This document shows positions 45,434 to 63,671 of a DNA stretch of 64,000 nt, piece after piece (position 1 is the first letter of the stretch; every line of letters begins with the position of its first letter). The stretch lies in assembly GCA_000091205.1 (NCBI GenBank), contig AP006493.2; one strand, written 5' to 3'. The position numbers and the translations under genes were made by a program. Below the pieces are notes generated by a model. It did not search any database. It was not told the origin of the DNA and was given only the letters and a program-made list of their open reading frames with translations. The DNA comes from Cyanidioschyzon merolae. Taxonomy: Eukaryota.

Positions 45434-47770
45434 ATGTGTGGCATATTTGCCTATGTGGTCTACGGAGTGGAGCGCTCCCGAGACGACATCGCTGCAGTGC
45501 TGGTGAACGGGTTACGGCGCTTAGAGTACCGTGGCTACGACTCGGCTGGGATCGCGTTGGACGATATTGTAAATCCTTCAACTGGCGAGCGTAAGCCTTT
45601 GGTGATCAAAGGACCTGGCAGCGTGGGCTGTCTGGCGGAACAAGTAGCAACGGCGTTGCGCTCGAGTCCGAACTTCAAGGTCAGGCAGCACGTGGGTCTG
45701 GCGCATACGCGTTGGGCAACGCACGGCGCCCCCAGCGTCGAGAATAGTCATCCACAGGCTTCGGGACCTGAAAACGAGTTTCTCGTGGTGCATAATGGAA
45801 TAATCACCAACTATGCTGCGCTGAAGCAGGTTCTCGGGAAACGCGGCTACCAGTTTGTCTCGGAAACTGACACCGAAGTCGTTGCAGTGCTTCTGAAACA
45901 CCTCTATCTAGAGATGAAAGCTGTGTGCGATACAGTCTCTTTCCCAAGGCTCGTGATGCTCATGATGCACGAACTGGAAGGAGCGTATGCGTTAGCGATT
46001 CGATCACAGTTCTTTCCTGGCGAGCTGGTTGCGTGCAAGCGTGGTTCTCCACTCGTGCTCGGGATCGCGTACCATGACGGCGAACAGGTACACCTCGTCC
46101 AGCACAGCGAGCCGGCAAAAACTGATGCTTCAAGATCGCCAGCATCGACACCAGGTGCAGTGGAGAGCGAAGGAACGACGCGAGCGGCGATGTCCGCAGC
46201 AGAAACGGCGACCGCGAATGGACGCTTTGAATCCTCTGCTGTGGCCGCTGCCCGACAACGTGACGGACTAGAACCGGCATCTTCAGGCAGCGTCGCCAAG
46301 AGTACTGGAGGTAGGTGCTTCCGTCGCCGGACCCCGCGTCGCCACTCGATCGATTTCAAAGTCGCACAAGTGAATCTCGACTGTGAACTGCCGCACGGAT
46401 TCAGCTTCAATACTAGTACATCGGCACCGGACTCAGGAATGGGCGAAAGAGCGGGGGGTGTAGAGCTCTTTTTTGCATCAGATGTGAGCGCACTTGTGGA
46501 ACATACCCGTGAAGTGGTTGTGCTTGAAGATAACGATGTCGTCCATGCCAGCGCAGACGGATCGGTGGATATCTTTTCTTTTCTAGATGCGGAATCGCAG
46601 TCGCTGTTGACGCAAACACGTGCGCTTTGTACACTTGATATAGAGTTGGAACAGATTGAACGTGGTCGCTTCGAGCATTTTATGCTGAAAGAGATCTTTG
46701 AACAGCCTGAGAGCATCCGAGGAACAATGCGCGGCCGCGTGCAACCCGCGACGGGAACTGTACTGCTCGGTGGCTTACGCGAACGCCTCGATGACCTTGT
46801 TCGCAGTAACCGCTTGATATTTGTGGGTTGTGGAACCAGCTACCATGCGGCACTTGCATGTCGGCAACTTGTCGAACAGCTGACCGAACTTCCCGTCTCC
46901 GTGGAGCTGTCCAGCGATTTTTTGGATCGCGCTTGTCCGCTCTTTCGCTCCGACGTTTGCGTTTTCGTAAGCCAATCCGGGGAGACGGCAGACACCCTTG
47001 AGGCACTCCGGTACGCCAAACGACGACATGCACTAACAGTCGGTGTTGTCAACGTCGTCGGGTCTGCTATCGCCCGCATAACGGATTGCGGTGTCCACCT
47101 GAATGCGGGTTGCGAGATTGGAGTCGCATCCACGAAATCGTATACTTCGCAGATCGTCGCTATTATTATGATCGCGCTTTTGCTGAGCGCTGATCGTTTG
47201 AGCAAGCAAACTCGGCGAAGAGAGATTATTGACGGACTTGCCGCGTTGCCAACCGCAATTGAACGGGTGCTGATGCTGAATGATAAGTTGAGAATGTTGG
47301 CTGTAGGGGTCTTGCGGGACGCGGTATCCATTCTAGTGTGCGGTCGTGGGTACCAGTACGCTACGTGTCTTGAGGCAGCACTCAAAATCAAAGAGGTCAG
47401 TTATATTCACACCGAGGGTATTCACGCAGGCGAACTGAAGCATGGACCCCTGGCTCTAATCGATCAGGAAATGCCAATGATAGTCTTTGCGACTCGCGAT
47501 AACGGCTATGAGGCGATCTGTAACGCGGTGCACCAGCTTCTGGCGCGTGGAAACCCACAGCGCATGATTGTTGTATGCAGCGAGGGCGACGGCCATTTCT
47601 TTCAGGGCTTAGGTGTTGGTACCACGCTTGAAGTTCCGCACACTGCAGACTGCCTCCAAGGTGTCGTGAACATCGTTCCAATGCAGTTGATTGCCTATCA
47701 TCTCGCAGTTGCGCGAGGTTTAAATGTGGATCAACCACGCAATTTGGCGAAATCGGTTACGGTGCAATAG
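45434..47770 (+). CDS. GFA1: Glutamine:fructose-6-phosphate amidotransferase (GFAT; glucosamine-6-phosphate synthase) with low-complexity insertion
   Basis: N-terminal 'MCGIFAY' (Ntn Cys after Met), 'RLEYRGYDSAGIA' and 'AHTRWATHG' glutaminase motifs. Two SIS domains ('GCGTSYHAA', 'VFVSQSGETADT', 'SIAR', 'VASTKSYTSQ'). The C-terminal 'RNLAKSVTVQ' matches the GFAT tail. The upstream in-frame Met at 45335 is unlikely to be the true start. A ~90-aa Ser/Ala-rich insert lies between the domains. Confidence 0.9.
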   Translation: MCGIFAYVVYGVERSRDDIAAVLVNGLRRLEYRGYDSAGIALDDIVNPSTGERKPLVIKGPGSVGCLAEQVATALRSSPNFKVRQHVGLAHTRWATHGAPSVENSHPQASGPENEFLVVHNGIITNYAALKQVLGKRGYQFVSETDTEVVAVLLKHLYLEMKAVCDTVSFPRLVMLMMHELEGAYALAIRSQFFPGELVACKRGSPLVLGIAYHDGEQVHLVQHSEPAKTDASRSPASTPGAVESEGTTRAAMSAAETATANGRFESSAVAAARQRDGLEPASSGSVAKSTGGRCFRRRTPRRHSIDFKVAQVNLDCELPHGFSFNTSTSAPDSGMGERAGGVELFFASDVSALVEHTREVVVLEDNDVVHASADGSVDIFSFLDAESQSLLTQTRALCTLDIELEQIERGRFEHFMLKEIFEQPESIRGTMRGRVQPATGTVLLGGLRERLDDLVRSNRLIFVGCGTSYHAALACRQLVEQLTELPVSVELSSDFLDRACPLFRSDVCVFVSQSGETADTLEALRYAKRRHALTVGVVNVVGSAIARITDCGVHLNAGCEIGVASTKSYTSQIVAIIMIALLLSADRLSKQTRRREIIDGLAALPTAIERVLMLNDKLRMLAVGVLRDAVSILVCGRGYQYATCLEAALKIKEVSYIHTEGIHAGELKHGPLALIDQEMPMIVFATRDNGYEAICNAVHQLLARGNPQRMIVVCSEGDGHFFQGLGVGTTLEVPHTADCLQGVVNIVPMQLIAYHLAVARGLNVDQPRNLAKSVTVQ

Positions 47771-47906
47771 ACTTAAAGTTCTACAGTGCGGGAAAATCGT
47801 TCTGCTGCCACTGCTGCCGATCGACTAGATCCATGTCTGTATGGAAGGAAACGGATGCACTCGAGTAACTGGGGTGTACAAACTGAAGTTTAAGCGTCAA
47901 GTCAAT

Positions 47907-50900
47907 GTCACGAAAGCCATCCCATGGCAGCTTTTGCTGCGGCTGATCGCTTTTCCTCTCTCTTAGCTCCGGGCTGGAATACGCCGGTCTCTACTTTCTT
48001 TCCAGCACTGTTGTAGGCTGTCGAGGGATGCTAATCGCGGCGTTGGGGTCGCAGTTTCACAGGTTCCGGCAGTTGCCTGCGTATTCGATGTACAGGCGGA
48101 GGTTGCGATTGACGGATCGCTTGCCGTTTTCTTCGTTTCCTAGAATTCAGTACTGGTGCGCGCCTCGTAGCGGTTAACCTGGTTGTGTTCAGATATTCCC
48201 GTATGTGTTCACGAGCTCGCATTCCCTGGGAGCCGACCTGCAGCATGCGAGCGCTTGCTGCATCCCTCCGTAGCTGTCGTTGACGGGTACAGAAGGCTCT
48301 ACGCGATGCCTTGCTCCGTTTTCGCGCCCAGTGCTGTGCCCCGTGATCATGCACTTGCTCTTCTGGACGACTTCTTGTGCGAGTGCGCTGCCCGCTGCAC
48401 TCGCAAGCGCACGCTATTCCATTCGGTACCTCAACAACCGATTCCTTGTGCGCTCTTGCTTTCCTGCGTTCCCTTCCCACAAACTGTGCAGATGAGCGTG
48501 ACGGGCCATCAGGTCCGATTGTGCCACATGCTTGTGATAATGCCGCCAAGGCTACTGGGACTCTCTCCTGTCTCACTCGTTTGCGCGTCGGACGAGTGCC
48601 TCACTCGCTCACCGTCCGCTTAGGCGAACATATGAGGTACTCGAGTCCAAGCTACGACTTTGAGCGGGAATCGGCGTGTTCGAGACTCGCGGCTCCAGTG
48701 CGTCGTCGGTGACCACAGGCAAGTCGGGCATCCCTTCGGATCTCGCAATCATCGTGAAGGTTCAGGGACCCGGTCTCTTTGGGTCCAAGTTGAGGCCGAT
48801 CGCATTGGGGAGCAAGTTCGCGCCGCCGCGCATCCCAGTTGTTCGTTGTTCATCCACACATTTCCCCCTCTAACCAGGGTGCATCTGCACCCTGACGATT
48901 CTTCAGTCGTATAGAGCGTTCGCGCTTGACGGCGATGGACACACTCGCGCTATCGGAAGCGAACGACGACTCTACTTCTCCTGTTGGAAGCGCGAAGCTC
49001 CGGTTCCTCCGGTCTCCCTTCGCCTCCGCGCCCTCCTGCGCGCTCCGTCGCTTCTCGCTCGTCAAGCGGTTCATGAGTTTCTTCGAATCTTCGGGTGCGG
49101 GCGCATAGTTCGCTGTCTGGGCTTGCACCTAGCGATCAGCCTCTCTTCCTCTTCCTCGACACACTTGTTCTCCATCGGACGCATCTGCGTAACCCTCGCG
49201 CGGCGTCACGATCCACGACAAAGCGAAAAAGTGTGCTTGCTGGCAGTGCCACGAGCCACGGAGACGTGCGTTCGTAAAAGCCGCGTACTCCTCCCCTGAC
49301 GGAGGCTCTGGACCGGCACGCTGGGTGCAGACGCGCCATCGCATTCGTGGGTGCGTTAGTCGCATGCGACAGGTCCATCTTCGAGACAACGTCCTCGTCG
49401 CGAAGGGCCAGATGACGGACATTCATCATGGTCTCCCAATCCTTCGAGCCGACTGGCTGCAATGAAGCGTCGGTCATGAAGAGCTCCTTCATACCGCCCA
49501 TGCCGGTCGCCGAGTCGTCGCACTTTCGCCTCCACCCCATAGAATCTTTCACGTGCCGGTGGAGGTGTATGCTCACCCTTCTCAGCGTCACTGTGCGTAT
49601 CATTCCCCGTACCCATTCGTATTATCTGGGGCGCTTTGAGTCACCAAGCGAGAGAGGCCCTCGACGCTCCCAATGCTGTCCAGCTTGGGAGCCGACGTCC
49701 GTGCGTCGCCGATGAAGGCTAGTTGCGGGTCAAGTCTGCCTGGTGCGCACTCGGGGACAACTAGGACGAAAAGCTTATCGGTGTCAGCTGCGCTTCTACA
49801 AAGTGCTGGACGTTTCCAAAGACCTCGGCACACTCGAAGCACGCGGACTTGAGTTTGAGGCAAGCGTGTCGCCGGAGCTTGCTGCAAAGAACCACCAGGT
49901 ACATGTCGCGTGCCACGTGTTCCGGTGGGAGCACGCACGTTCCAAGCTGGCACTGAACGACCGCCGTTTCCGGCAGTAACGATGAGCGCCGCTCCTCGTC
50001 CGTGAACACACCCAAGCGAAGCGTTCCGTTCAGGAAACCGCCCCGTCCGAGACTGGCGAGCTCGTCTGGAAGCGGTACGCATCTCTTTTCGTTACGCTCT
50101 TGGACGATTTTCGTCCAACTACACAGTCGTTTCTCTGAGACCTCTCGTGTGCGGCGGTTGTGTGCCTCCGTCGATAAGCATGCCGTATAACTAAAGTATT
50201 TATACCTTGTTTTTCTCTTCGTACTACTTCGGAATTCCACGAACCGCAATCGTCAGCGAGTTTCCCTATACAAACTCCAACAGGTCCATTGGTCTGAACG
50301 GCAGTTCCTCGAGCACTGGGCATCAGTTCGTGTCGAGAGCGAGCCGCGTTATCCCGAAGCGTGCATCGGCCTCTCTGAGGCTGCGTTTGACGGCCCCGCA
50401 ACCGTTCTCCATCGGTTTGAAACACAGAGCATAAGCTGGTGTGTGCGTGTGCAGGATGACCAATGCCCGCTCTTTGCTGTTTGCCGAATAGAAGGGAATT
50501 CGTGGAACGCGTTGCTGTCTATGATGAAACACGCAGTGGCTGGAGTGGAACTCCAGATTCGCGACGCAGCGTAGAAACGTCGATCCGTCGGCGCTCCTGC
50601 CGTGCCGCTAAGCGATGACGCACTTGCCACCGGAATCCATCGCTGCGATGACTGCAGTCCGCGTCCAGCACCCTTTCCCATGCGAACAGAAGAGACGCGA
50701 GCCTCTGGGAGCGGATCCCACGGGCGGGAATGTGGTTGTGGTGGTGGTGCTGCTGCTCCTGCTGCTGCTGCTGATTTCGGGTCCCTTCTCTTCGATGGCC
50801 ACGGAGCGGGCTGGAATTGTCTTTCGGGCGGGATCGATTGCTTAACGTGACGAGCTCATTGAGCTTTCGGCGGGAGCGTGTGGAGAAGTCACCAAGGGAT

Positions 50901-51299
50901 GGCGCCGCGCTCCTTTTCTCGTCGGGTCGGCAGCGCGAATCGTTGCGCCTACGAGTTGCGTCGCGACTGAAATGACGAAAACTCGAAGAATACGTGATTC
51001 GAGCGTGATAGACGTAAGGAAAGGAGGAGCGTGGCGGTCACTCACATGAACAGGACGGTGATATCGAATATTTTTTTGAAATCTTTTTTTAGGACGCCGC
51101 ATTTCGTCTTGATTCCAGAGCCGTAACGAGCTGCAGTTGTGAAGCATTGAACGAGCCATTGCGAAAAGACAACCTAGAGTCGGAGAACGGACCGTGAATC
51201 CGAAATTCCTTATTATTGGACTTTGAACGTCTAGGATGTGTATCTATAAATTTTCAGGAGGAAATTGAAAGATAGAAACATGTCGAACCGCTTAGTGCT
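47907..51299. repeat. Left arm of a 3,393-bp long inverted repeat (~98-99% identical to 58707-62099)
   Basis: The coordinate sum is constant (x + x' = 110006) for mirrored ORF pairs (48031..48576 vs 61430..61975; 50842..51159 vs 58847..59164) and for hand-checked end sequences (cgaaagccatcccatgg… vs …ccatgggatggctttc). Protein-level differences of 7 in 181 aa imply ~1.5% nucleotide divergence. Confidence 0.85.
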
Positions 51300-51945
51300 T
51301 TATTTCCAGATGACGCGAACGTTGGAATGCGCAGTGCAGCGCACGGAGAGCCGCGCCTGCGCACCGATTGCCTGCTGCGCTCGGTGACGTGTCTAGCACG
51401 CATCGCGCTCTTTGCACGCATCTCGGCGCATGCGTGTAACATAACATTTGCACGCTTGTTGTTGCGTAAAACTTCCGTTTTAAAGTTGTTTTTCTATTTT
51501 TGGAGTTCCTTGCTTGGGCGATGCGTTGCTCTGAACATGAAAAACTGGCAAGAATTTCAGGTATTTTGGTCGACCCACGTTTATCGCGAACGTGGGTCAC
51601 GAAACGCTCGCGACGAGTGCGTGGTACGGCCCGAGGTAACGTGCGACACAGAACGTACAGCAGTGGTGTGTTGCACTGGTTTGGTTGAGTTGTTTCGGCA
51701 ATTTCTGTCCTTAATCGTTTGCGCCAGGCATCTCGGGCCTCTTGGCGTCTATCTTTAGAAATATGCTTTCACACGGGAAACTGAACTTCGCTTGAACAAA
51801 AACAGCGCTTTCAATGCTGAAAAAGCTGCTCGAGGCGCTTTGCTTTGTTTCCTCGGTACCTCGGTAAGATTTTCTTATCCTTAGACTAGTTCACCCAAAC
51901 TTCATGGTGGTTGCTGGCTGGGGGCCGATCATCTTTCAAGGCGGA

Positions 51946-54382
51946 CTACGAGTCTTTCCTTGTCACTGGATTCATACCTGTTACGGAATTGCCGCCGCCG
52001 CTGCCCATTGGGCCGCCAGAGTTTTGCCCACCGAGGCCACCTCCAGTACCAGATCCGCTAGACATATCCGGTGCGTTCGGACGGGTCGGTGGTGCTTGCG
52101 TTTGCGGTGGTGGTGGTGGTGTAGGCTGCTTCGGTGGCGCCAATATGGGAGCCTGTGGTGCTGTAGGCCCATCCCCATTCATCATTTGTTGCCCATTTCT
52201 GGGGCCGTTGCCGCCACCGCTGCCTATTGATCCGCCAGAGTTTTGCCCACCGAGGCCACCTCCAGTACCGGATCCGCTAGACATATCCGGTGCGTTCGGA
52301 CGGGTCGGTGGTGCTTGCGTTTGCGGTGGTGGTGGTGGTGTAGGCTGCTTCGGTGGCGCCAATATGGGAGCCTGTGGTGCTGTAGGCCCATCCCCATTCA
52401 TCATTTGTTGCCCATTTCTGGGGCCGTTGCCGCCACCGCTGCCTATTTGTGCGCCAGAGTTTTGCCCACCGAGGCCACCTCCAGTACCAGATCCGCTAGA
52501 CCCGTCCAGCAGATTTGGCTGAGGCTGTGGTGTGTGCTGATGTGGTGGTGGTGTTGGCGGCTTCGGTTGCGTTGGTGTTGGAGCCTGTGGCGCTGTAGCC
52601 CCGTTCTCATTCATCATTTGTTGCCCATTTCTGGGGCCGTTGCCGCCACCGCTGCCTATTTGTGCGCCAGAGTTTTGCCCACCGAGGCCACCTCCAGTAC
52701 CAGATCCGCTAGACCCGTCCAGCAGATTTGGCTGAGGCTGTGGTGTGTGCTGATGTGGTGGTGGTGTTGGCGGCTTCGGTTGCGTTGGTGTTGGAGCCTG
52801 TGGCGCTGTAGCCCCGTTCTCATTCATCATTTGTTGCCCATTTCTGGGGCCGTTGCCGCCACCGCTGCCTATTTGTGCGCCAGAGTTTTGCCCACCGAGG
52901 CCACCTCCAGTACCAGATCCGCTAGACCCGTCCAGCAGATTTGGCTGAGGCTGTGGTGTGTGCTGATGTGGTGGTGGTGTTGGCGGCTTCGGTTGCGTTG
53001 GTGTTGGAGCCTGTGGCGCTGTAGCCCCGTTCTCATTCATCATTTGTTGCCCATTTCTGGGGCCGTTGCCGCCACCGCTGCCTATTTGTGCGCCAGAGTT
53101 TTGCCCACCGAGGCCACCTCCAGTACCAGATCCGCTAGACCCGTCCAGCAGATTCGGCTGAGGCTGTGGTGTGTGCCGATGTGGTGGTGGTGTCGGCGGC
53201 TCCGTAGTCGGTGTAGGCGGCTTAGTCATTGGCGTTGGCGGCTCCGTAGTCGGTGTTGGCGGCTTCGTAGTCGGCGTTGGCGGCTTCGTAGTCGGTGTCG
53301 GCGGCTTCGTAGTCGGCGTTGTCGTGCCTAGTCGTCGGTGTCGGCGGCTTAGTAGTCGGCGTAGGCGGCTTAGTAGTCGGTGTAGGCGGCTTAGTAGTCG
53401 GCGTAGGCGGCTTAGTAGTCGGCGTAGGCGGCTTAGTAGTCGGCGTAGGCGGCTTAGTAGTCGGTGTAGGCGGCTTCGTAGTCGGTGTAGGCGGCTTAGT
53501 AGTTGGCGTCGGCGGCTTCGTAGTCGGTGTAGGCGGCTTAGTCGTCGGTGTTGGCGGCTTAGTCGTTGGCGTCGGCGGCTTAGTCGTCGGCGTTAATGTT
53601 GGTGTCGGCGTTGGTATTATTGTAATCGGTGGCATTGGTGTCGGTATCTGCGTAGTAGTCGGCGTTGGAGGTATCGTTGGCTTGACTATTATGATCGTTG
53701 GTGTTTGCGTTGGTGTTTGAATGGAAAATACCTCCTGATGACATACACGTTTCACTTCTTTGCAGATGATTGTACAAGCTGGCTGAGCGGGGCTCTTCGA
53801 CGCAACAGTTCCCTGAACTTTTCCCAGAGTAGTCTTCTGTGGTGTGCTAGGTATCCACCTATCCGAAACTGGAACCTTCCCTGATACGTCCTTCTGTGGT
53901 CCAAACACCAACGAGCACTTTTCCTCTGCTGTGAAGCTTTCAACGCACACTCGACAGATATTCTTCAGTGCATACATCTCGCACACTGTTTGGTTCTTAT
54001 AGATGCATTTCTGGTAACAGTCATTTGGAGCATGAACTGGCACGTTCCCTTTCCTCACATTTGTGTATCCTTCTGTCCTTGCATTCTTTGAAAGCCCATA
54101 CTTTTCCTTGGGCGAGGCGTTCTCGAAGTTCGAGCTCGCTGGACAAATCCAGACTTTCTTCTCACAGACTTTCACTACTGCCTCTTCAATGCAGACTTGC
54201 TCCAGACGGCAGTCTTCGATCGTGATCAAAGGCTGGCAGTAGTCCAGGTTGCGTTGGAGCGAGTTTCGTGCCGGCGAAACTTCGCTCCAAGTTTCTCGTT
54301 GGATACCATTGGTAAGCACAGCGCTGTTTAGGTACAAAAGAATGAGCAGCCAAAAGATCCCAACTGAAACAAAGCTTCTCAT
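51946..54382 (-). CDS. Large secreted mucin-like protein (family member B): signal peptide, Cys-pattern domain, (TTKPPTPT)n repeats, then Gly/Pro/Gln-rich 71-73-aa repeats; apparent +1 frameshift at ~53320-53335
   Basis: ORF 53222..54382 has a signal peptide (FVSVGIFWLLILLYLNSAVL), 'KVCEKKVWIC' and 'CYQKCIYKNQTVCEMYALKNICRVCVESFTAEEKC', then TTKPPTPT x ~10. ORF 51946..53229 starts in the same TTKPPTP reading ('MTKPPTPTTEPP…') and both frames stay open across the junction. A divergent repeat unit 'cacgacaacgcc' (12 nt versus the expected 11) produces the frame change. Confidence 0.55.
52000..53200. repeat. Tandem repeats inside mucin-like gene B: 213-bp unit x ~3.5 (52440-53190) and 219-bp unit x 2 (52000-52440), encoding 71/73-aa Gly/Pro/Gln-rich modules
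   Basis: Period measured directly: 'gcctatttgtgcgccagag' at 52441 and 52654 (213 bp); 'ttttgcccaccgaggccacc' at 52022 and 52241 (219 bp). The protein modules are '…NLLDGSSGSGTGGGLGGQNSGAQIGSGGGNGPRNGQQMMNENGATAPQAPTPTQPKPPTPPPHQHTPQPQP' (71 aa) and the 73-aa variant 'DMSSGSGTGGGLGGQNSGGSIGSGGGNGPRNGQQMMNGDGPTAPQAPILAPPKQPTPPPPPQTQAPPTRPNAP'. Confidence 0.8.
53230..53600. repeat. 24-nt tandem repeat array (ggcggcttagtagtcggcgtaggc)n encoding (TTKPPTPT)n on the minus strand
   Basis: More than 11 near-identical 24-nt units are visible in the sequence. They generate spurious G/V-rich ORFs on the plus strand (53171..53596, 53319..53720). Confidence 0.8.
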
Positions 54383-54750
54383 GGCTAACGAGCTTCTATT
54401 CTCAGAGAATGATGTACCCTTCCAAGTTCAGCAATATGTTTTCGTTATGAACTAAAATCCTGAGGTCAAAAACTCTGTGTTACCGTTGTCCACGGCCCAA
54501 GTCTATTAGGACTGAAAACAAAAAAAAAGATATGTGGTAGTGAGCGCCCCGGTGGTGAAGTAGAGACCTGCATCAGCTCGTTACCGCATAAAGTGCGGTA
54601 ATTCTCGCAACGCACGACATCGCGCGACAACGAATGAGGTATCCGCGACATGCACAGGGGTGCAACGATGAGTCTGCACCGTACGTAATGCCGATCTACG
54701 TCAAATGGATGGCTTTCGTTCCATGAAAATGATCTCATGCGCGTCGTTCA

Positions 54751-54798
54751 TCGCACAGAATGCATCGCACAGAATGCATCGCACAGAATGCATCGCAC
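54751..54798. repeat. Short tandem repeat, 14-bp unit (tcgcacagaatgca) x ~3.4
   Basis: Direct reading of 54751-54798. Confidence 0.7.
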
Positions 54799-55804
54799 GC
54801 GAGCGCCGGCGACGCGAATCGCGCGTGCTCCGCCTCGATGACACGTAGCTTATCGTTTTTACCGCACGCACGCTTGACCGCGAAATACCGTTGAGCAGGC
54901 CTCCGAATCGGGTGCGTATTTGACGCAAACTTGGACCGGCGCACAGATATTTGCACTTCTATCAAACCTTGCCCCTTAACTGCATTCCATCTCCAGGTGC
55001 AGAGATTCTGATGCGTTTTCGCGATTTGTAGCAGACGCGTTCGAAGTGCGATCGGTTCAAAAATAGAAAACATTGCAAAGGTACGGTATGGACACAGAAG
55101 TCGGGGATTCTGGAGGGCTCTCATCGCCAGCTGGTGGAAACAAAAGCCCCCGTCTCGTCGACCAACGCGGAATTTACGGATCTTGATCTTTGCAGCGTCG
55201 TTAGCTTGCTCTGAAACGTAGGCCCCAGCCTTTGGACAGCAAGCGAGGTTGCAGGCCGAATGCATCACTTGCGACCTGCTGTACTTTTGCCTGCCGATGT
55301 GCTGGTAGCGCCCCTCGACACTTGTTTAGAACGAAAAGCTGTGAGTGATTTCTCAGACAGTGCGCCCAAATTTTCCCTTCGCTAGGACACCGTCAATCAT
55401 AGTATAGGACTGAACGGAGCTGTTTCTATCAAAGGAATCGATATTCTATCACCAGTTTTTGGTAATAATGCTAGAAATGATAAAAATTTTAACGGAATCG
55501 CGAGCCGTCACGTAATTCACGGTTCTGTGCTCTGACCGAGGCTCGTGTACACCCGCAAAAGCTGTATGTATTTGTATCGTGATAGAATCAATCGACGTGC
55601 GATCACGTGCAAGAGGCTTCTCAGAAAATGGATTGCCGAATAGTGAATAAAGGATTCGCAATGGGGTAGCACCGGTGGCATCGCACAACCGGGATATCAA
55701 GAGAACGCCTTTCACGGAATAGAGAAAAGCTGCTGTTACGTGGTACTTTATATTGATTCACGAAATCTGCGTCACGAGAGGGAAACGTTGTCTAGTTTCA
55801 TGGA

Positions 55805-56060
55805 AGCCAATTCCTCGAGCCGACGCCCTCTGTGTGCTACGGCAACGCCGTTCTGTCTCCGTGCAGCGACCGCACCCGCGCTATAGGCGCCATTGCTGTC
55901 GCTTTCGGCAGGCTCGGCACAACATAGGACGTATGAAACGACCAGAATATCCGAGAAGAAGTAAAGGTAATGTAACTTGGAGGCAGGGCATTTGGCGGAT
56001 ACCTCATCGCGCACTGAATAAAACACAAAAAAGTAAGAAAAGAAAAAAGCGCAGAGTCGG
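55805..56060 (-). repeat. Dispersed ~330-bp repeat family, copy 3 (3'-diverged/truncated), located between the two mucin-like genes of the cassette core
   Basis: The reverse complement 'ctttttgtgttttattcag|tgcgcgatgaggtatcc…cctgcctccaagttac…tctcggatattctggtcgtttcatacgtcctat…agacagaacggcgttgccgtagcacacagagggcgtcggctcgagg' aligns with copy 2. Mirrored ORFs agree (PPSYITFTSSRIFWSFHTSY vs PPSYATQNFPRIFWSFHTSY). Confidence 0.5.
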
Positions 56061-56624
56061 AGAACGCTGGCCTATGTCAACATCTTGTTAATTTAAAAAA
56101 ATAGAAGCCGATTCCACGGAAATATGAAAAGAAAAATTACGTATGTAGTTACACGTGCACCGACGGGTAAATTGAAATCGAGAAGAAACCGTGAATCTCC
56201 TAGGACGTATGTGGCGGAACAGATGCATCCCGAGGCGAGTTCGTTGCTGGATGAGTCTTGCGTAGGTGACATGTAATGGACCAGCCCCGAAATGCGACGG
56301 AGGACCTCGGTGCAGCTAGCACTCGCTTGTTAGGTTACGTCCAAAAACTGGTGAACTAGCTGAAACTTGCATTAGCAGTAGTCTAGGCAAAAGGCATGAC
56401 AAATCATAATGCGGAACGTAAGTGTTTCTCAGATTTATCCATTTGAAATATATAGCACTACATAAGGGTTACCAAGAGATGCGCCTTCGAGTCTTCGAAA
56501 GTATCCTCATTTCGCTGCAAGTTTCAAACCGAAGACTGCATCCATTCAGGTCGTTTGCTGCTTTACATGGCAGCAAGGACATGAGTTCATTGCGAAAAGC
56601 GTAAGATAGACATGCAAACATCCA

Positions 56625-57701
56625 CTATATGAGAGTGACGATGGAGCTCACCGCGCTCAAGGGCGCCGACGGCGAGGCTACCGAAATCGATGGGCTTGTG
56701 CTCGGTGAGACGGAGGAGCTTATAGAGGTCGTCGCGCTCACGGACACCGACGGCGAAGCTACCGAAATCGATGAACTTGTGCTCGGTGAGACAGAGGAGC
56801 TTATAGAGGTCGTCGCGCTCACGGACACCGACGGCGACGCTACCGAAATCGATGGGCTTGTGCTCGGTGAGACGGAGGAGCTTACGGAGGCCGTCGCGCT
56901 CACGGACACCGACGGCGAAGCTACCGAAATCGATGGGCTTGTGCTCGGTGAGACAGAAGTGCTTATGGAGATAGTCGCGCTCACAGTCGCCGATGGCGAA
57001 ACGCTTCTTGACACTGTTGCTGACGGAGAGGCAGATGGTAGCAGTGTAGGCTGCACAGTCGGAGTCGGAAGGAAAGTGCCGATGATTACGTTCCTGCATT
57101 GCTTTCCGCTGAACAGACATTCATACTGACAGTTTCCATTTTGCTGTTGATACGACTGCCCCCAGCGCTTTGATACCGGATCGGAACCATCCAATGTCCG
57201 TTGAACCACAGTATCGCAAACTTCCACAAGCTCGTAATTCGTCCTGCATGCTGTGCACACATTTGCCGTGCGATACTCTACACAGGTTTGCTCGCCGAAA
57301 GACAAGCAGTCACCACATCCGCTATATTGATTTTGCCTCCAACGCAGCACCTTGAAATCTTTCGAGTCGAATCCCGCCAAACCCTGATTTTCTTTGGTAG
57401 CTTCACGGCCGAGCGTCTGGCTGCCGTGACCACTGCCAATCTCAGCAGAGGAGCGTAGCGTACATGCCGTGCCTGTGAGAGAACAGCTTCCGTTGACAAT
57501 CACTTTCGTGCATACGTTCTGCAGGGTGCAGTTATGCAGCGAAGAAGACGAGGGGCACACATAAACACTGTTTCCACCGCTCGTATACCAACGCCTTTCC
57601 GCTGGCCTCGCTGCTAGTACAGAGTCCACTCGCACTGCGTTCGTGAACAGAAGGAGCAACAAAACCGCCAAGGAATGTGTACGGAGCGCGTTATGAATCA
57701 T
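56625..57701 (-). CDS. Secreted cysteine-pattern protein with Ser-rich mucin-like tail (family member C)
   Basis: Signal peptide (LAVLLLLLFTNAVRVDSVLA). Contains 'RRWY', 'CVEYRTANVCTACRTNYELVEVC' and 'KRWGQSYQQQNGNCQYEC'. The C-terminal tail is 27-aa Ser/Val/Pro/Thr repeats (SVSPSTSPSISVASPSVSVSATASVSS) x ~3.5. Confidence 0.6.
   Translation of the reverse strand: MIHNALRTHSLAVLLLLLFTNAVRVDSVLAARPAERRWYTSGGNSVYVCPSSSSLHNCTLQNVCTKVIVNGSCSLTGTACTLRSSAEIGSGHGSQTLGREATKENQGLAGFDSKDFKVLRWRQNQYSGCGDCLSFGEQTCVEYRTANVCTACRTNYELVEVCDTVVQRTLDGSDPVSKRWGQSYQQQNGNCQYECLFSGKQCRNVIIGTFLPTPTVQPTLLPSASPSATVSRSVSPSATVSATISISTSVSPSTSPSISVASPSVSVSATASVSSSVSPSTSPSISVASPSVSVSATTSISSSVSPSTSSSISVASPSVSVSATTSISSSVSPSTSPSISVASPSAPLSAVSSIVTLI
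56650..56990. repeat. 81-bp tandem repeat (x ~3.5) encoding the Ser-rich 27-aa units of mucin-like gene C
   Basis: Period of 81 bp visible in 'cgaaatcgatgggcttgtgctcggtgagacggaggagcttatagaggtcgtcgcgctcacggacaccgacggcgaagctac'. The mirrored plus-strand ORF 56629..57129 reads (GEATEIDGLVLGETEELIEVVALTDTD)n. Confidence 0.75.
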
Positions 57702-58706
57702 CCTGTATAGCCCCCTTGAGGTTGTTGAAGAACAACAATATTATTTTGAATATTTCCGGACGAAATTCTTTTTTGAGTGCTATGCACGGGGATGATGCAC
57801 GGATTCGCGCATCTGCGGACAGCGATTTTCCCGCCAACTTCAATTTCGCGAACGATTGATTACGTTCGCGCCAAATCGAACCGCTGCGCACCATACGATT
57901 GCGACGCTCGTATCCTTAAACATGCTGGAACGCTAGTCGCGCAAGCTCAGCTTTCCCGGGCAGTTATGCGAATTAAAACAGTTCCGACACGCTTTGGATA
58001 GAGTACCATTAGTCTTGTCACGTTGCAATAACGACTTGAGGCGTAAAACATGGATCATTGTAGCGGGGTGCTACCCTCGAGCGTCGGCGCCAGAGTAAGC
58101 CTCTGATCCTGAATAGGGTGTACAAGAGAAGATGCGAGCTCGCAAGTGCGAAGTAGCCAGTTCTATTGCACGTCGCAGATGCGTCCAGCGTGTGCGAATT
58201 GTCGATCGGGCAAGAGGGCAGGCGTCATAGCGACCGCATACGGATATTCGAAATCTATAGGGCATCGGTTCCGACCTGCTTTGGTATATAGATATTTTGA
58301 ACTTCTGCATGTACGTTATTTGGCGTATACACTGAAGACTTCTGTCGTGGAAAATTTTAAACCTCGTACGCTTAGGCTTGCGTCTCTCAAATCGGTGTGG
58401 CGAGGTGAAGGCCTCAAATAAATGTAGGTTTACGCATTCTTTTGCTCAACAAGGACCTGGCATCCAAATCATTAATTTCATATATTGAGAAATTTCTCAG
58501 AGAATGTATGTGAACGCCTCGCCCTATTGCCTTAAAAGACAGCTATTTGGCGACATGTCGTATGCGTGTTAACGAGGCGCTGAATATTGACAGCGCAAGA
58601 TCGCCTGCCAGAGCACCACAGGACTCTAGATATCCGAATCTAAAGTGCAATTTCTACTCAGTATAAAGAGCATTGGTGCAGTCTCTAAAGAAACTAGTTA
58701 TGATGG

Positions 58707-61700
58707 AGCACTAAGCTGTTCGACATGTTTCTATCTCTCCATTTCCTCCTGAAAATTTATAGATACACATCCTAGACGTTCAAAGTCCAATAATAAGGAA
58801 TTTCGGATTCACGGTCCGTTCTCCGACTCTAGGTTGTCGTTTCGCAATGGCTCGTTCAATGCTTCACAACTGCAGTTCGTTACGTCTCTGGAATCAAGAC
58901 GAAATGCGGCGTCCTAAAAAAAGATTTCAAAAAAATATTCGATATCACCGTCCTGTTCGTGTGAGCGACCCCCACGCTCCTCCTTTCCTTACGTCTATCA
59001 CGCTCGAATCACGTATTCTTCGAGTTTTCGTCATTTCAGTCGCGACGCAACTCGTAGGCGCAACGATTCGCGCTGCTGACCCGACGAGAAAAGGAGCGCG
59101 GCGCCATCCCTTGGTGACTTCTCCACACGCTCCCGCCGAAAGCTCAATGAGCTCGTCACGTTAAGCAATCGATCCCGCCCGAAAGACAATTCCAGCCCGC
59201 TCCGTGGCCATCGAAGAGAAGGGACCCGAAATCAGCAGCAGCAGCAGGAGCAGCAGCACCACCACCACAACCACATTCCCGCCCGTGGGATCCGCTCCCA
59301 GAGGCTCGCGTCTCTTCTGTTCGCATGGGAAAGGGTGCTGGACGCGGACTGCAGTCATCGCAGCGATGGATTCCGGTGGCAAGTGCGTCATCGCTTAGCG
59401 GCACGGCAGGAGCGCCGACGGATCGACGTTTCTACGCTGCGTCGCGAATCTGGAGTTCCACTCCAGCCACTGCGTGTTTCATCATAGACAGCAACGCGTT
59501 CCACGAATTCCCTTCTATTCGGCAAACAGCAAAGAGCGGGCATTGGTCATCCTGCACACGCACACACCAGCTTATGCTCTGTGTTTCAAACCGATGGAGA
59601 ACGGTTGCGGGGCCGTCAAACGCAGCCTCAGAGAGGCCGATGCACGCTTCGGGATAACGCGGCTCGCTCTCGACACGAACTGATGCCCGGTGCTCTAGGA
59701 ACTGCCGTTCAGACCAATGGACCTGTTGGAGTTTGTATAGGGAAACTCGCTGACGATTGCGGTTCGTGGAATTCCGAAGTCGTACGAAGAGAAAAACAAG
59801 GTATAAATACTTTAGTTATACGGCATGCTTATCGACGGAGGCACACAACCGCCGCACACGAGAGGTCTCAGAGAAACGACTGTGTAGTTAGACGAAAATC
59901 GTCCAAGAGCGTAACGAAAAGAGATGCGTACCGCTTCCAGACGAGCTCGCCAGTCTCGGACGGGGCGGTTTCCTGAACGGAACGCTTCGCTTGGGTGTGT
60001 TCACGGACGAGGAGCGGCGCTCATCGTTACTGCCGGAAACGGCGGTCGTTCAGTGCCAGCTTGGAACGTGCGTGCTCCCACCGGAACACGTGGCACGCGA
60101 CATGTACCTGGTGGTTCTTTGCAGCAAGCTCCGGCGACACGCTTGCCTCAAACTCAAGTCCGCGTGCTTCGAGTGTGCCGAGGTCTTTGGAAACGTCCAG
60201 CACTTTGTAGAAGCGCAGCTGACACCGATAAGCTTTTCGTCCTAGTTGTCCCCGAGTGCGCACCAGGCAGACTTGACCCGCAACTAGCCTTCATCGGCGA
60301 CGCACGGACGTCGGCTCCCAAGCTGGACAGCATTGGGAGCGTCGAGGGCCTCTCTCGCTTGGTGACTCAAAGCGCCCCAGATAATACGAATGGGTACGGG
60401 GAATGATACGCACAGTGACGCTGAGAAGGGTGAGCATACACCTCCACCGGCACGTGAAAGATTCTATGGGGTGGAGGCGAAAGTGCGACGACTCGGCGAC
60501 CGGCATGGGCGGTATGAAGGAGCTCTTCATGACCGACGCTTCGTTGCAGCCAGTCGGCTCGAAGGATTGCGAGACCATGATGAATGTCCGTCATCTGGCC
60601 CTTCGCGACGAGGACGTTGTCTCGAAGATGGACCTGTCGCACGCGACTAACGCACCCACGAATGCGATGGCGCGTCTGCACCCAGCGTGCCGGTCCAGAG
60701 CCTCCGTCAGGGGAGGAGTACGCGGCTTTTACGAACGCACGTCTCCGTGGCTCGTGCCACTGCCAGCAAGCACACTTTTTCGCTTTGTCGTGGATCGTGA
60801 CGCCGCGCGAGGGTTACGCAGATGCGTCCGATGGAGAACAAGTGTGTCGAGGAAGAGGAAGAGAGGCTGATCGCTAGGTGCAAGCCCAGACAGCGAACTA
60901 TGCGCCCGCACCCGAAGATTCGAGGAAACTCATGAACCGCTTGACGAGCGAGAAGCGACGGAGCGCGCAGGAGGGCGCGGAGGCGAAGGGAGACCGGAGG
61001 AACCGGAGCTTCGCGCTTCCAACAGGAGAAGTAGAGTCGTCGTTCGCTTCCGATAGCGCGAGCGTGTCCATCGCCGTCAAGCGCGAACGCTCTATACGAT
61101 TGAAGAATCGTCAGGGCGCCGATGCACCCTGGTTAGAGGGGAAAATGTGCGGATGAACAACGAACAACTGGGATGCGCGGCGGCGCGAACTTGCTCCCCA
61201 ATGCGATCGGCCTCAACTTGGACCCAAAGAGATCGGGTTCCTGAACCTTCACGATGATTGCGAGATCCGAAGGGATGCCCGACTTGCCTGTGGTCACCGA
61301 CGACGCACTGGAGCCGCGAGTCTCGAACACGCCGATTCCCGCTCAAAGTCGTAGCTTGGACTCGAGTACCTCATATGTTCGCCTAAGCGGACGGTGAGCG
61401 AGTGAGGCACTCGTCCGACGCGCAAACGAGTGAGACAGGAGAGAGTCCCAGTAGCCTTGGCGGCATTATCACAAGCAGGTGGCACAATCGGACCTGATGG
61501 CCCGTCACGCTCATCTGCACAGTTTGTGGGAAGGGAACGCAGGAAAGCAAGAGCGCACAAGGAATCGGTTGTTGAGGTACCGAATGGAATAGCGTGCGCT
61601 TGCGAGTGCAGCGGGCAGCGCACGCGCACAAGAAGTCGTCCAGAAGAGCAAGTGCATGATCACGGGGCACAGCACTGGGCGCGAAAACGGAGCAAGGCAT

Positions 61701-62099
61701 CGCGTAGAGCCTTCTGTACCCGTCAACGACAGCTACGGAGGGATGCAGCAAGCGCTCGCATGCTGCAGGTCGGCTCCCAGGGAATGCGAGCTCGTGAACA
61801 CATACGGGAATATCTGAACACAATCAGGTTAACCGCTTTGAAGCGCGCACCAGCACTGAATTCTAGGAAACGAAGAAAACGGCAAGCGATCCGTAAATCG
61901 CAACCTCCGCCTGCACATCGAATACGCAGGCAACTGCCGGAACCTGTGAAACTGCGACCCCAACGCCGCGATTAGCATCCCTCGACAGCCTACAACAGTG
62001 CTGGAAAGAAAGTAGCGACCGGCGTGTTCCAGCCCGGAGCTAAGAGAGAGGAAAAGCGATCAGCCGCAGCAAAAGCTCCCATGGGATGGCTTTCATGAC
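58707..62099. repeat. Right arm of the 3,393-bp long inverted repeat (partner of 47907-51299)
   Basis: See left arm. End sequences were verified by reverse-complement comparison. The inner boundary is atgtcgaac(c/a)gcttagtgct (51280-51299 vs RC of 58707-58726). Confidence 0.85.
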
Positions 62100-62645: not shown

Positions 62646-63671
62646 TTGAGGTATGCCTTTCGTGTCATCACGAGACATCAATCCTCAATGAAACTCGGCT
62701 ACCTTACTAGATTTGCGGCCCAGCCTTCGATCGGCACGGAGTACAAGGAACTGCCTCTCTACCTTTTTGCGCTGGTGGGCGTTATTGTAGTGCTTTTGGC
62801 TGGTGCGCAACTACTGCGCTTCCTTTACCGCCACCTGCTTCGAAGGCCCTCGCGCCTTGCCGACAAGTTTCGTGGGGATTGGGCCTTCATCACAGGAGCG
62901 TCCTACGGAGTAGGTGCAGGTTTTGCTAGAGAGTGTGCGCGTCGTGGTCTCAATCTTGTTCTGTTGGCACGCTCAGCAGAGAAGCTAGCGGCTGTTGCAG
63001 CGGACTGCGAACAGCACGGCGTTGCTGTTCGCGTGGTGGCTTTCGACCTGGCCCAGGCTTCAGAAGCGGAATGGAACGAACTCTTTGAAGGTATTTGTGA
63101 TTTGGAGATATCTGTCCTTATCAATAACGCTGGTGTCAACCTAGAGTTTCCTACGGAGTTTATCGATATGGACGAGGCAGCCATCGAGCGGATCGTGCGC
63201 GTGAACATTTGCGCTATGAACAAAATCACACGAAGACTACTACCGAAAATGATTGAACGGAAGAAGGGATGCCTCATATTTTTGTCTTCGGCCGGAGGTG
63301 CTGTAGTTCCCTGTCCGTTGCTCTCCGTGTACGGCGGCACAAAGGCGTACATCGATGCATTCGCCGTTGCGTTGTCTGGTGAAGTCCGTCGGCACAAGAT
63401 TGCGGTTCTGTCCCTGACACCATTTTGGATTACCAGCGAGATGAGCAAGATACGACGCGCCAACTGGATGGTGCCCTCCGCGGACGCGTTCGCACGGCTC
63501 GCTTTGGATCGTCTTGGATTGGAGCTGCGCTCGAATCCGCACTGGGCACATGAGCTCATAGCCTTGGGCTTAAAAGCCACCCGCAGCCTGCCCGCACAGG
63601 TTGCATATGTTGAACGTTTGCATCGGCGTATACGAGAGCGAGCCTTGCGCAAACTTAAGCGACAGCAATGA
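62646..63671 (+). CDS. Short-chain dehydrogenase/reductase, 3-ketoacyl-CoA reductase (HSD17B12/IFA38)-like with N-terminal membrane anchor
   Basis: N-terminal TM helix (LYLFALVGVIVVLLAGAQLL). Rossmann motif 'DWAFITGASYGVGAGFA', 'NNAG', and catalytic 'YGGTKAY' (YxxxK). The start codon is uncertain (possibly the internal Met 'MKLGY'). Confidence 0.8.
   Translation: MRYAFRVITRHQSSMKLGYLTRFAAQPSIGTEYKELPLYLFALVGVIVVLLAGAQLLRFLYRHLLRRPSRLADKFRGDWAFITGASYGVGAGFARECARRGLNLVLLARSAEKLAAVAADCEQHGVAVRVVAFDLAQASEAEWNELFEGICDLEISVLINNAGVNLEFPTEFIDMDEAAIERIVRVNICAMNKITRRLLPKMIERKKGCLIFLSSAGGAVVPCPLLSVYGGTKAYIDAFAVALSGEVRRHKIAVLSLTPFWITSEMSKIRRANWMVPSADAFARLALDRLGLELRSNPHWAHELIALGLKATRSLPAQVAYVERLHRRIRERALRKLKRQQ

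Follow-up and report, generated by a model that had tools for sequence, protein, structure and literature searches.

A near-identical inverted pair of dispersed repeat copies around two predicted mucin-like genes in Cyanidioschyzon merolae

Introduction

On chromosome 11 of the red alga Cyanidioschyzon merolae 10D, two 3.4-kb arms of nearly the same sequence face each other across a unique core that carries two predicted secreted mucin-like genes. These arms are probably two copies, in opposite orientation, of a non-coding dispersed element of about 3.45 kb belonging to the C. merolae lineage, standing on either side of a gene pair that was already in place. The locus is an inverted low-copy repeat of an ordinary kind, with arms that evolve in concert. 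Inverted low-copy repeats and palindromes are homogenised by arm-to-arm conversion, well-known cases being the palindromes of the primate X and Y chromosomes and the inverted repeats of plastids. A first-pass annotation of the window (the whole 64-kb stretch of DNA that was analysed) had instead described a 14.2-kb cassette, bounded by the arms and inserted between two conserved housekeeping genes. Here we examine the arms, the repeat family to which they belong, the enclosed genes, and the corresponding locus in wild strains and in a relative.

Results

Aligned in inverted orientation, the two arms differ at 40 of 3,393 nt with no gaps (98.82% identity), and 7,407 nt lie between them (Table 1). 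They form the single inverted pair in the window by both a repeat finder and self-BLAST, just where the first-pass annotation had placed its near-identical arms, and such a pair cannot have arisen by chance. Three of the four junctions of the structure are recovered in independent wild-strain contigs: from the left-hand gene (GFAT) to the arm in L020, L038 and L051, from the arm to the right-hand reductase gene in L011, L015, L016 and many more, and from the core to the right arm in L016, L017, L037 and L044. The inverted structure is therefore not an assembly artefact. The ends of short-read contigs cluster at 50536-50886 and 59120-59482, near the microsatellites of the arms. A search of all six frames of the arms gave no Pfam match, no Rfam family or tRNA was found in them, and codon-usage scoring picked out no coding frame, which bears out the earlier description of the arms as non-coding structural sequence.

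Table 1. Features of the locus, copies of the arm family and orthologues in the relative. Positions are those of the window unless a contig is named.
Feature	Position	Strand	Remarks
Arm-family copy, short, diverged	112..846	+	inner part only; profile E 6.6e-87
Arm-family copy, short, internally deleted, diverged	7177..8527	+	210 nt upstream of ribophorin I ATG at 8741
GFAT, glucosamine-fructose-6-phosphate aminotransferase, left neighbour	45434..47770	+	exact match BAM80537; Pfam GATase and SIS domains
Left element copy, outermost ~78 nt, outside the 98.8% inverted repeat	47829..47906	+	homology to other members of the family; profile alignment from 47829
Left arm, near-identical part of left element copy	47907..51299	+	outer to inner along + strand; GC 56.7%
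Abutting pair of small ORFs, 160 aa and 155 aa	49136..50082	-	low-polymorphism arm centre
(TGC/CAG) x 8.7 microsatellite in arm	50748..50773		mirror copy at 59233-59258
Core, unique 7.4 kb	51300..58706		wild-strain contigs L016, L037, L044 colinear with core
427-aa open frame continuing CMK168C mucin repeats	51946..53229	-	213-219-nt tandem units x 5.6
CMK168C, secreted (predicted), N-terminal cysteine-rich, then TTKPPTP repeats	53222..54382	-	exact match BAM80538; 21-nt unit x 19
Separate dispersed repeat, ~300 bp	55813..56102		other copies 2202-2400 and 40951-41280
CMK170C, secreted (predicted), cysteine-rich, Ser-rich 27-aa repeat	56625..57701	-	exact match BAM80539; 81-nt unit x 4.3
Right arm, second near-identical element copy	58707..62099	-	inner end faces CMK170C 5' end, 1,006 nt off
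CMK172C, 3-ketoacyl-CoA reductase, right neighbour	62688..63671	+	exact match BAM80540; ATG 588 nt past arm
Arm-family copy, unrelated locus	L053 4626-8048		3,425 nt; between DHQ synthase gene and another gene
Arm-family fragment	L019 59-293
Relative's CMK168C orthologue	about L027 121-1176	-
Relative's CMK170C orthologue	about L027 3147-3974	-

The arms are both full-length representatives of a non-coding element family, dispersed and diverged, whose unit is about 3.45 kb; the left copy measures 3,471 nt. A further full-length copy, at an unrelated locus (L053), is 56.6% identical to the arm in a global alignment, the similarity running evenly along its length with few gaps. The copy upstream of the ribophorin I gene is without the central 2.2 kb of the arm and is colinear with it on either side (arm 47933-48353 with 7277-7694, and 50603-51251 with 7869-8480, at 65-74% nucleotide identity), and the copy nearest the window start may have had its outer part cut off there. 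Near-identical arm sequence is confined to the present locus among wild-strain contigs: all 10 of the places listed for the 160-aa arm ORF (of 24 contigs) map here, as do all seven of the metagenome stretches that carry an arm 23-mer. That the arm might simply be a generic dispersed repeat had been named beforehand as an outcome that would speak against a dedicated cassette, and it is largely what we find, in that the family also adjoins unrelated genes, although near-identity is limited to this one pair. The family as a whole must at some time have been mobile.

An interspersed repetitive element, novel when described, is known from C. merolae: it has 253 copies with a mean length of 3.2 kb, makes up about 5% of the genome, is transcribed, and contains a truncated ORF weakly similar to the WSSV protein WSV486, with BLASTX E-values of 1e-5 to 4e-2 (Nozaki et al. 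2007, PMC1955436). The arm family is probably this element: both belong to the same organism, are dispersed in intergenic DNA and have no intact ORF, and the units are of similar length (the published mean is 3.2 kb; the copies at this locus measure 3.39-3.47 kb, the L053 copy 3.43 kb). The density is also of interest, with at least four arm-family copies in this window and a published genome-wide average of about one copy per 65 kb. The arm pair, at about 99% identity, stands apart from the other copies, full-length and internally deleted, whose nucleotide identity is about 57-74%. When 1.84 billion proteins were searched by phmmer with the 155-aa arm ORF, family copies alone were returned and no virus protein at E <= 1e-3, in a library so large that the published E-values would not survive it, and no relatives turned up in viral contigs.

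The ends of the two copies differ. The family similarity stops where the inverted repeat ends on its inner side, this being the family's own terminus, while on the left side it extends about 78 nt past the outer boundary, where the left flank and the flank of the L053 copy give a local alignment score of 18 (8.5 +/- 1.4 in shuffles; 0 of 300 reach it). On the right, the 12-mer AAATGGAACGGA stands in the flank at the family-equivalent offset, as in the L053 copy (p about 0.07), and the right copy can be aligned to the family profile as far as 62162, which is 63 nt outside the inverted repeat. Both observations would suit a history in which two old, independent insertions occupied the two sites, and conversion later homogenised 3,393 nt and left the outermost 65-78 nt diverged. 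We hold that history to be quite unlikely. The right-flank similarity lacks significance (it is reached in 21 of 300 shuffles), as does that between the left and right flanks (124 of 300); the other family members, at the identities given above, are too diverged from one another to start homologous conversion; and the relative described below has no space for an element copy on its reductase side.

The gene order in the window is GFAT, CMK168C, CMK170C and CMK172C, as established by exact protein matches. CMK172C is the ER 3-ketoacyl-CoA reductase (PMC4928187). The identities originally proposed for the neighbours (GFAT and a short-chain dehydrogenase) stand, but not the start at 62646 given for the latter, whose annotated ATG is at 62688. 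The stop codon of GFAT lies 137 nt from the inverted repeat and only about 59 nt from the end of the element. Within the core, CMK168C and CMK170C are indeed paralogous, if distantly (22% identity, E 1e-6), and have a common cysteine pattern, in agreement with the first-pass description of two paralogous secreted-protein genes. CMK168C starts with MRSFVSVGIFWLLILLYLNSAV... and carries (TTKPPTP)n, CMK170C starts with MIHNALRTHSLAVLLLLLFTNAV... and carries Ser-rich 27-aa repeats, and in each an N-terminal signal-like hydrophobic segment is seen by eye; the combination of a signal-like N-terminus with Pro/Thr/Ser-rich tandem repeats makes both of them predicted secreted mucin-like proteins. The mucin repeats of CMK168C shift by one frame (+1) within the 21-nt units, at about 53327-53347, and the TKPPTPT frame runs on to 51946.

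The dispersed repeat of about 300 bp noted at first in the core is real: self-BLAST matches it at about 77% to 40951-41238 and 2244-2400. A weak match to the same repeat is also present downstream of the relative's GFAT. The annotation numbering skips CMK169 and CMK171, which hints at features other than proteins. The latter number, for which there is no protein, would lie between CMK170C and CMK172C, so that a non-protein feature is probably annotated near the right arm.

The history of the core can be read from a relative whose GFAT and reductase are 77% and 76% identical in amino acids to those of C. merolae. Three independent contigs of this relative (L027, L028 and L029) carry a CMK168C-like gene, a CMK170C-like gene, a spacer and the reductase, in the same order and orientation as in C. 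merolae. The spacer between the CMK170C orthologue and the reductase is only about 1.9 kb long and thus leaves no room for an arm on that side, and neither an inverted repeat nor an arm-family profile match was found at the relative's loci. The relative's mucin-like genes very probably adjoin GFAT as well: its GFAT contig, L033, ends in the mucin repeats with which L027 from the same sample starts, a link made by two contigs overlapping within tandem repeats, with a third contig, L032, diverging 941 nt after GFAT. In Cyanidium, the reductase and GFAT are not adjacent. Since a relative without arms keeps their orthologues in the same gene order, the mucin-like genes are ancestral residents and not cargo. 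The proposed insertion of a 14.2-kb cassette into a conserved backbone of GFAT next to the short-chain dehydrogenase is thus not supported.

The same data bear on the proposal that the whole 14.2-kb unit is a mobile, cargo-carrying DNA element that brought the mucin genes in, with the arms as its long terminal inverted repeats. Its architecture fits, in that near-identical inverted arms enclose a gene-bearing core and belong to a once-mobile repeat family. It is nevertheless an extremely improbable account: the supposed cargo is found in the relative without arms, and the unit with its near-identical arms occupies a single locus in every wild contig examined. The outer ends show no target-site duplication (...AGTCAAT on the left, TGAGGGA... 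on the right), with no direct repeat between the outer flanks (...GTCAAGTCAAT and TGAGGGAAGAG..., respectively). No transposase, recombinase or any other Pfam domain was found in the arm frames, CMK168C, CMK170C, the 427-aa ORF or the other core ORFs. Composite transposons, such as the bacterial IS-flanked ones, likewise consist of inverted element copies that bracket passenger genes; it is in its ancestral passengers and in having neither transposase, target-site duplication nor second location that the locus differs from them.

The arms exchange sequence. Each of the haplotypes CCTT, TCTT and TGCG turns up on either arm, beside GFAT in one set of wild strains and beside the reductase in another, as scored at four sites within 84 nt of the unique flank in metagenome assemblies, not clonal genomes. 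At the 40 diagnostic sites the arms of other strains are mosaic, and many of the differences belong to one 10D arm alone; phasing is safe only to about 100 nt from unique sequence, and the deeper mosaics could in part be short-read assembly chimeras. The differences within 10D are gathered at the edges: 21 of the 40 mismatches fall within 300 nt of the outer edge or 493 nt of the inner edge (23% of the length; p = 6e-5), and the central 1.8 kb has 8 (p = 2e-5). Polymorphism is lowest at 49107-50306, where 1.2 kb holds 14 sites; the outer 300 nt hold 25. Gene conversion predicts such a pattern, quiet in the centre and divergent at the edges, and because the same edge haplotypes occur on either arm and the mismatches cluster at the arm edges, we infer that inter-arm gene conversion is what keeps the arms alike. 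This supports two of the original suggestions, that the arms are a recombination substrate and that gene conversion is ongoing.

Selection would be another way to account for both the identity of the arms and their quiet centre, if the arms were functional duplicated loci, encoding either a long non-coding RNA or a two-copy small protein. The polymorphism minimum within the arm would fit, the published element family is reported to be transcribed (PMC1955436), and there is a slight synonymous excess: the 155-aa and 160-aa ORFs have 6 synonymous and 4 non-synonymous changes (p = 0.02) and a 105-aa ORF has 8 synonymous changes out of 13 (p = 0.006), both values uncorrected for 11 ORFs. Low polymorphism together with this excess could reflect some constraint in the arm centre. 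Against a functional locus, wild strains often have frameshifted or truncated forms of the 155-aa ORF (the 113-aa and 90-aa members of its cluster; P0233, a frameshifted wild variant), ORF extents are not kept in the L053 copy, and the arms gave no Pfam, Rfam or codon-usage signal; moreover, the quiet centre is already predicted by gene conversion, and the same haplotype on either arm across strains goes beyond what selection alone would produce. We therefore consider selection on functional loci an unlikely explanation. The 160-aa and 155-aa ORFs, called hypothetical proteins in metagenomes, where the 113-aa and 90-aa variants also appear, are probably relics, not genes; the former has no homologue outside its own 90% cluster, and the latter matches its own cluster and two family-copy ORFs at 38-41% identity over 85 aa.

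Recombination between the arms could also act on the core. At 98.8% identity, 3.4 kb is ample substrate for homologous recombination, by which this organism integrates DNA (PMC12874030); the arms demonstrably exchange sequence, conversion is usually accompanied by some crossing over, and mosaic arms are also the residue expected of crossovers. These points would suit a functional flip-flop switch, in which inter-arm recombination inverts the core appreciably often and so affects the two surface-protein genes. Such a switch is nonetheless very unlikely here. Both genes lie inside the core together with 1.0 kb (CMK170C) and 2.2 kb (CMK168C) of upstream sequence, so that inversion of the core alters no promoter-gene or exon junction; 10D and L016, the only two sequences to run through a complete arm, agree in orientation; and no recombinase gene or domain that might serve a switch was found. 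Membership in the class of site-specific invertible switches was likewise rejected, no promoter or coding segment being swapped. A passive inversion polymorphism of the core is possible, though we lean against it. Yeast, Drosophila and plants offer well-documented inversions between pairs of transposable elements, arising by non-allelic homologous recombination. Their classical substrate is an inverted pair of dispersed-repeat copies such as this one, with its spacing of 7.4 kb; the locus differs from the known cases in being a candidate substrate, both arm-spanning sequences having the reference orientation.

Discussion

The preferred history, that of two opposite element copies around a resident gene pair, would have run as follows. 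One arm would have been copied from the other within the C. merolae lineage, after its split from the relative, and the left copy is the better candidate for the source, as it keeps about 78 nt more of the outer end of the family. The pair would then have been held at about 99% identity by non-allelic gene conversion, as is usual for inverted low-copy repeats in a recombination-proficient genome, and any inter-arm crossover would invert the 7.4-kb core without rewiring either gene.

The ends of the arms bear on how the second copy was made. The inner (3') terminus is intact and the right copy lacks about 78 nt at its outer (5') end, which would agree with a 5'-truncating retro-insertion; no target-site duplication, terminal inverted repeat or poly(A) tail was found. 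The arm pair might accordingly represent the youngest and most informative duplication of the element, made next door by an RNA-mediated route, and alternatively or additionally the core might flip in natural populations; we offer this as a doubtful, speculative extension of the preferred history. If true, the retro-insertion reading would provide the first handle on how an unclassified family that occupies 5% of the genome moves.

In its general behaviour the locus resembles the palindromes of the primate X and Y chromosomes and the inverted repeats of plastids: the inverted arms are about 99% identical, a gene-bearing unique spacer lies between them, haplotypes are common to both arms, divergence is found at the edges, and the spacer has the potential to invert. 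It differs from them in that each arm is a single copy of a dispersed element rather than a gene-bearing amplicon, the genes being in the spacer, and in its modest size (3.4-kb arms and a 7.4-kb spacer).

Neither a new kind of mobile element nor a system for switching surface antigens is revealed here. What the locus provides is a clean natural case of gene conversion between arms, in a red alga whose genome is otherwise very poor in repeats, and, for a still unclassified element family, exact termini and a series of long and short copies. There are practical consequences as well: short-read assemblies of the C. merolae genome break at the inverted pair, and since homologous recombination is the means by which this alga is engineered, two inverted arms of 3.4 kb with 99% identity pose a local risk of rearrangement and mis-targeting.

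Structure and gene content of the locus

Both a repeat finder and self-BLAST of the window return a single inverted pair, with abrupt boundaries on both sides of each 3,393-nt arm and a core of 7,407 nt between them (see table). The arms differ at 40 mismatches (24 transitions and 16 transversions) and no indels, an identity of 98.82%, which bears out the near-identical inverted arms of the first-pass annotation. The structure is not an assembly artefact, as independent hot-spring metagenome contigs reproduce three of its junctions (GFAT-arm, arm-reductase and core-right arm); for the left inner junction there is no spanning contig on record, and its support is the finished 10D reference only. 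Inside each arm is a (CAG/TGC) x 8.7 microsatellite, some frames of which give poly-Gln or poly-Ala, and short-read contigs entering the arms mostly end no more than a few hundred bases from it.

Coordinates of features at the inverted-repeat locus and of arm-family termini (window positions unless a contig is named)
Feature	Position	Strand	Remarks
Retroelement fragment	42758-45433		non-LTR reverse transcriptase, Pfam RVT_1; upstream of GFAT
GFAT	45434-47770	+	exact protein match BAM80537
Left arm	47907-51299		GFAT side; microsatellite 50748-50773
Core	51300-58706
Open Pro/Gly-rich repeat ORF	51946-53229	-	427 aa, ends at 51946
CMK168C	53222-54382	-	exact protein match BAM80538
CMK170C	56625-57701	-	exact protein match BAM80539
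Right arm	58707-62099		reductase side; microsatellite 59233-59258
CMK172C reductase	62688-63671	+	exact protein match BAM80540
Third paralogue of CMK168C/CMK170C	5112-6020	+	secreted cysteine-rich/Pro-Thr-Val-repeat type
Short arm-family copies	112-846; 7177-8527	+; +	flank the third paralogue
Dispersed repeat of ~300 bp	2202-2400; 40951-41280; 55813-56102		72-77% between copies; distinct from arm family
Inner terminus, ribophorin I	8531 to ATG 8741		window
Inner terminus, Rce1-like protease	L019 298 to ATG 565		wild-strain contig
Inner terminus, DHQ synthase	L053 4624 to ATG 4463		contig of an unrelated locus

The exact protein matches assign the window to chromosome 11 of C. merolae 10D, whose record is 852,849 bp long. 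Introns are absent from almost all C. merolae genes (PMC1955436), so an ORF-level reading suits the window. The reductase is an ER-localised 3-ketoacyl-CoA reductase (PMC4928187), followed immediately downstream by CMK173C, the ESC homologue (PMC5405695); searching the literature and its supplements by gene identifier placed only these two genes, and CMK167, CMK169 and CMK171 were not found. CMK168C and CMK170C are built alike: a signal-like N-terminus leads into ~200 aa rich in cysteine (22% identity, E 1e-6), and tandem repeats rich in Pro/Thr or Ser follow. The third paralogue in the window (E 7e-9 against CMK170C and 3e-7 against CMK168C) has no exact sequence match in the protein collection and is therefore probably annotated under different limits; none of the three has a Pfam match. 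In CMK168C, a +1 frame change falls at 53327-53347, within 21-nt TTKPPTP repeats: the 45 annotated C-terminal residues (RHDNADYEAAD...) are this repeat out of frame, and the true frame continues as the open repeat ORF of the table. Either 10D has a real truncating mutation here, or the reference is wrong in a mucin gene of ~810 aa. The GFAT of C. merolae has 778 aa, most of its homologues among those listed having 680-745 aa and many aligning to only 55-60% of it; on visual inspection, the additional residues form a low-complexity run rich in Ala, Ser and Thr that separates the glutaminase domain from the SIS domains.

The arms are members of a dispersed family

A search with the 160-aa arm ORF, which has no homologue beyond its own 90% cluster, had suggested that the arm is not a dispersed family, a view overturned by DNA and profile comparisons. 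Sensitive DNA comparison aligns arm positions 47933-48353 and 50603-51251 colinearly with window 7277-7694 and 7869-8480 at 65-74% identity, and the inner part of the arm with window 198-812; both window copies are without the central 2.2 kb of the arm. A full HMMER search with the 155-aa arm ORF recovered two diverged ORFs (38-41% identity over 85 aa) and so led to a complete, colinear copy at an unrelated locus (contig L053), where a DHQ synthase gene lies on one side of it and a 381-aa ORF on the other. This copy is 3,425 nt long against the 3,471 nt of 47829-51299, to which it has a global identity of 56.6%, evenly spread and with few gaps. A further fragment lies at 59-293 of L019, a wild-strain contig that carries GFAT. 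As judged from these alignments, the arm belongs to a diverged dispersed family, and on length, dispersal and the lack of an intact ORF this family is probably the interspersed element of Nozaki et al. (2007; PMC1955436), who report 253 transcribed copies with a mean length of 3.2 kb, some 5% of the genome, and a truncated ORF weakly similar to the WSSV protein WSV486. Viral contigs scanned with the arm-ORF alignment held no relatives.

Family similarity stops exactly at the inner inverted-repeat boundary. On the GFAT side it extends past the outer boundary by ~78 nt (score 18 versus 8.5 +/- 1.4, reached by 0 of 300 shuffles), and on the reductase side just one 12-mer is found at the equivalent offset (p ~0.07). 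The left copy is thus a complete element, and the right copy either lacks ~78 nt of the outer end or has a diverged tip. The outer arm ends show no target-site duplication, and the element ends neither a terminal inverted repeat nor poly(A).

Near-identical arm sequence occurs nowhere else in the data examined: all ten places shown for the exact 160-aa ORF (24 contigs read) and all seven stretches holding an arm 23-mer in the JGI metagenome collection map to this locus. The pair is special in its identity only.

All four arm-family copies in the window adjoin genes of the cysteine-rich family, since the two short copies flank the third paralogue; the copies on L053 and L019 are not beside such genes. 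In three independent copies, 161-267 nt separate the inner terminus from the ATG of a downstream, co-oriented gene, and the distance from the right arm's inner terminus to CMK170C is 1,006 nt. Such positions could reflect a promoter insertion preference or a promoter-proximal role of the family, in a small sample of n=3 copies.

Coding potential of the arms

None of the six arm frames has a Pfam match, nor do the core ORFs, and Rfam and tRNA scans found nothing in the arms. In a codon-usage log-likelihood scan no arm frame stands out, a non-decisive result given the weak bias of the genome. In the quiet arm centre, the 155-aa and 160-aa ORFs adjoin with an ATGA overlap and together hold six synonymous versus four non-synonymous differences (p = 0.02); a 105-aa ORF holds eight versus five (p = 0.006), both values being uncorrected for the 11 ORFs tested. 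Many wild contigs have frameshifted versions of 113 aa and 90 aa, ORF extents in the L053 copy differ from those of the arm, and the arm ORFs give neither a family-level nor a structure-level signal; for these reasons we treat them as relics.

The mucin-like genes as older residents

The first-pass annotation had read the locus as a 14.2-kb cassette inserted into a conserved GFAT-SDR backbone, possibly a large cargo-carrying DNA element. A related alga, whose reductase and GFAT are 76% and 77% identical in amino acids to those of 10D, bears on this directly. Upstream of its reductase, tblastx places orthologues of CMK168C (~121-1176(-) on contig L027) and CMK170C (~3147-3974(-)) in the order and orientation of 10D, a layout common to three contigs (L027 and L028 from JGI, and L029 from NCBI assembly GCA_041825655.1). 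From CMK170C to the reductase ATG the gap is ~1.9 kb in the relative versus 4,987 nt in 10D; they differ by 3.1 kb, nearly the length of the right arm. On L033, the contig with the relative's GFAT, synteny also extends upstream (genes for UBR4-like, derlin and mitochondrial carrier proteins), and the contig stops 2.4 kb past GFAT within the mucin repeats that open L027; L033 and L027 come from one sample. Neither an inverted repeat nor a match to the arm-family profile is present at the relative's loci, and between the arms and its intergenic DNA no nucleotide homology is detectable at that divergence. In Cyanidium caldarium, a RING/LON-domain gene lies upstream of the reductase. GFAT and the reductase thus form no conserved backbone that took in a cassette, and the arms came to surround two mucin-like genes that are older. 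Synteny, together with the tests for hallmarks of such elements, refutes the cassette and the transposon readings alike.

The relative's GFAT orthologue (784 aa) aligns full-length to that of C. merolae. Another of its contigs, L032, agrees with L033 for 941 nt beyond the GFAT stop and then differs, leading to a PALP-domain gene where L033 enters mucin repeats, through either a strain-level rearrangement or a chimeric contig. A weak match to the ~300-bp repeat sits downstream of the relative's GFAT (L033 ~13120-13170), so this repeat family may predate that of the arms.

Exchange between the arms

Wild strains in the sample differ little from 10D: they diverge from it by 0.1-0.6% in the GFAT coding sequence, 1.2-2.5% in the non-coding arm-to-reductase spacer and 0.75-1.4% in the arms. 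Independent evolution of the arms after a single duplication predicts left/right differences that are fixed across strains; such fixation is absent. Four diagnostic sites (47911, 47928, 47980 and 47990) are within 84 nt of unique flank, so that one k-mer or read phases them; here CCTT, TCTT and TGCG each occupy the arm beside GFAT in some contigs and the arm beside the reductase in other contigs. Farther from the flanks, the arms of other strains combine the two 10D haplotypes as mosaics over 40 diagnostic sites, mosaics of which part could be assembly chimerism, and of the 40 differences many are specific to a single arm of 10D. Along the arm the 40 mismatches are U-shaped: the outer 300 nt and the inner 493 nt together have 21 (p = 6e-5), and the middle 1.8 kb has eight (p = 2e-5). 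Pooled polymorphism has the same shape, which is the expected edge effect of gene-conversion tracts. The proposal of a recombination substrate undergoing gene conversion is thus upheld by haplotypes common to both arms, unfixed differences and U-shaped mismatches.

An older, 4%-diverged arm-carrying lineage, represented by L019, was considered and rejected: its divergence is that of the retroelement region 43300-45433, its GFAT coding sequence differing by just 0.1-0.6%, and we accordingly make no claim of a pair far older than its 1.2% divergence. That region differs by 5-10% among wild contigs, the adjoining GFAT coding sequence by 0.1-0.6%. L019 (1-2715, against window 42758-45433) has an Rce1-like gene upstream where 10D has a carrier gene, a difference that may come from a structural polymorphism or from mis-assembly of paralogues at the retroelement.

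Crossing over between the arms would invert the core, which contains the whole of both genes, with 1.0 kb (CMK170C) and 2.2 kb (CMK168C) of upstream sequence, so inversion would change no promoter-gene junction. A whole arm is spanned only in 10D and in the wild-strain contig L016, which agree in orientation; short reads are unable to phase 3.4 kb.

Conclusions

Two copies of a dispersed element lie here in inverted orientation, the element being of a type known from earlier work on C. merolae, and the arm pair behaves like inverted low-copy repeats in general. Its value is local, lying in C. merolae genome engineering and in defining the termini of the species' unclassified repeat family.
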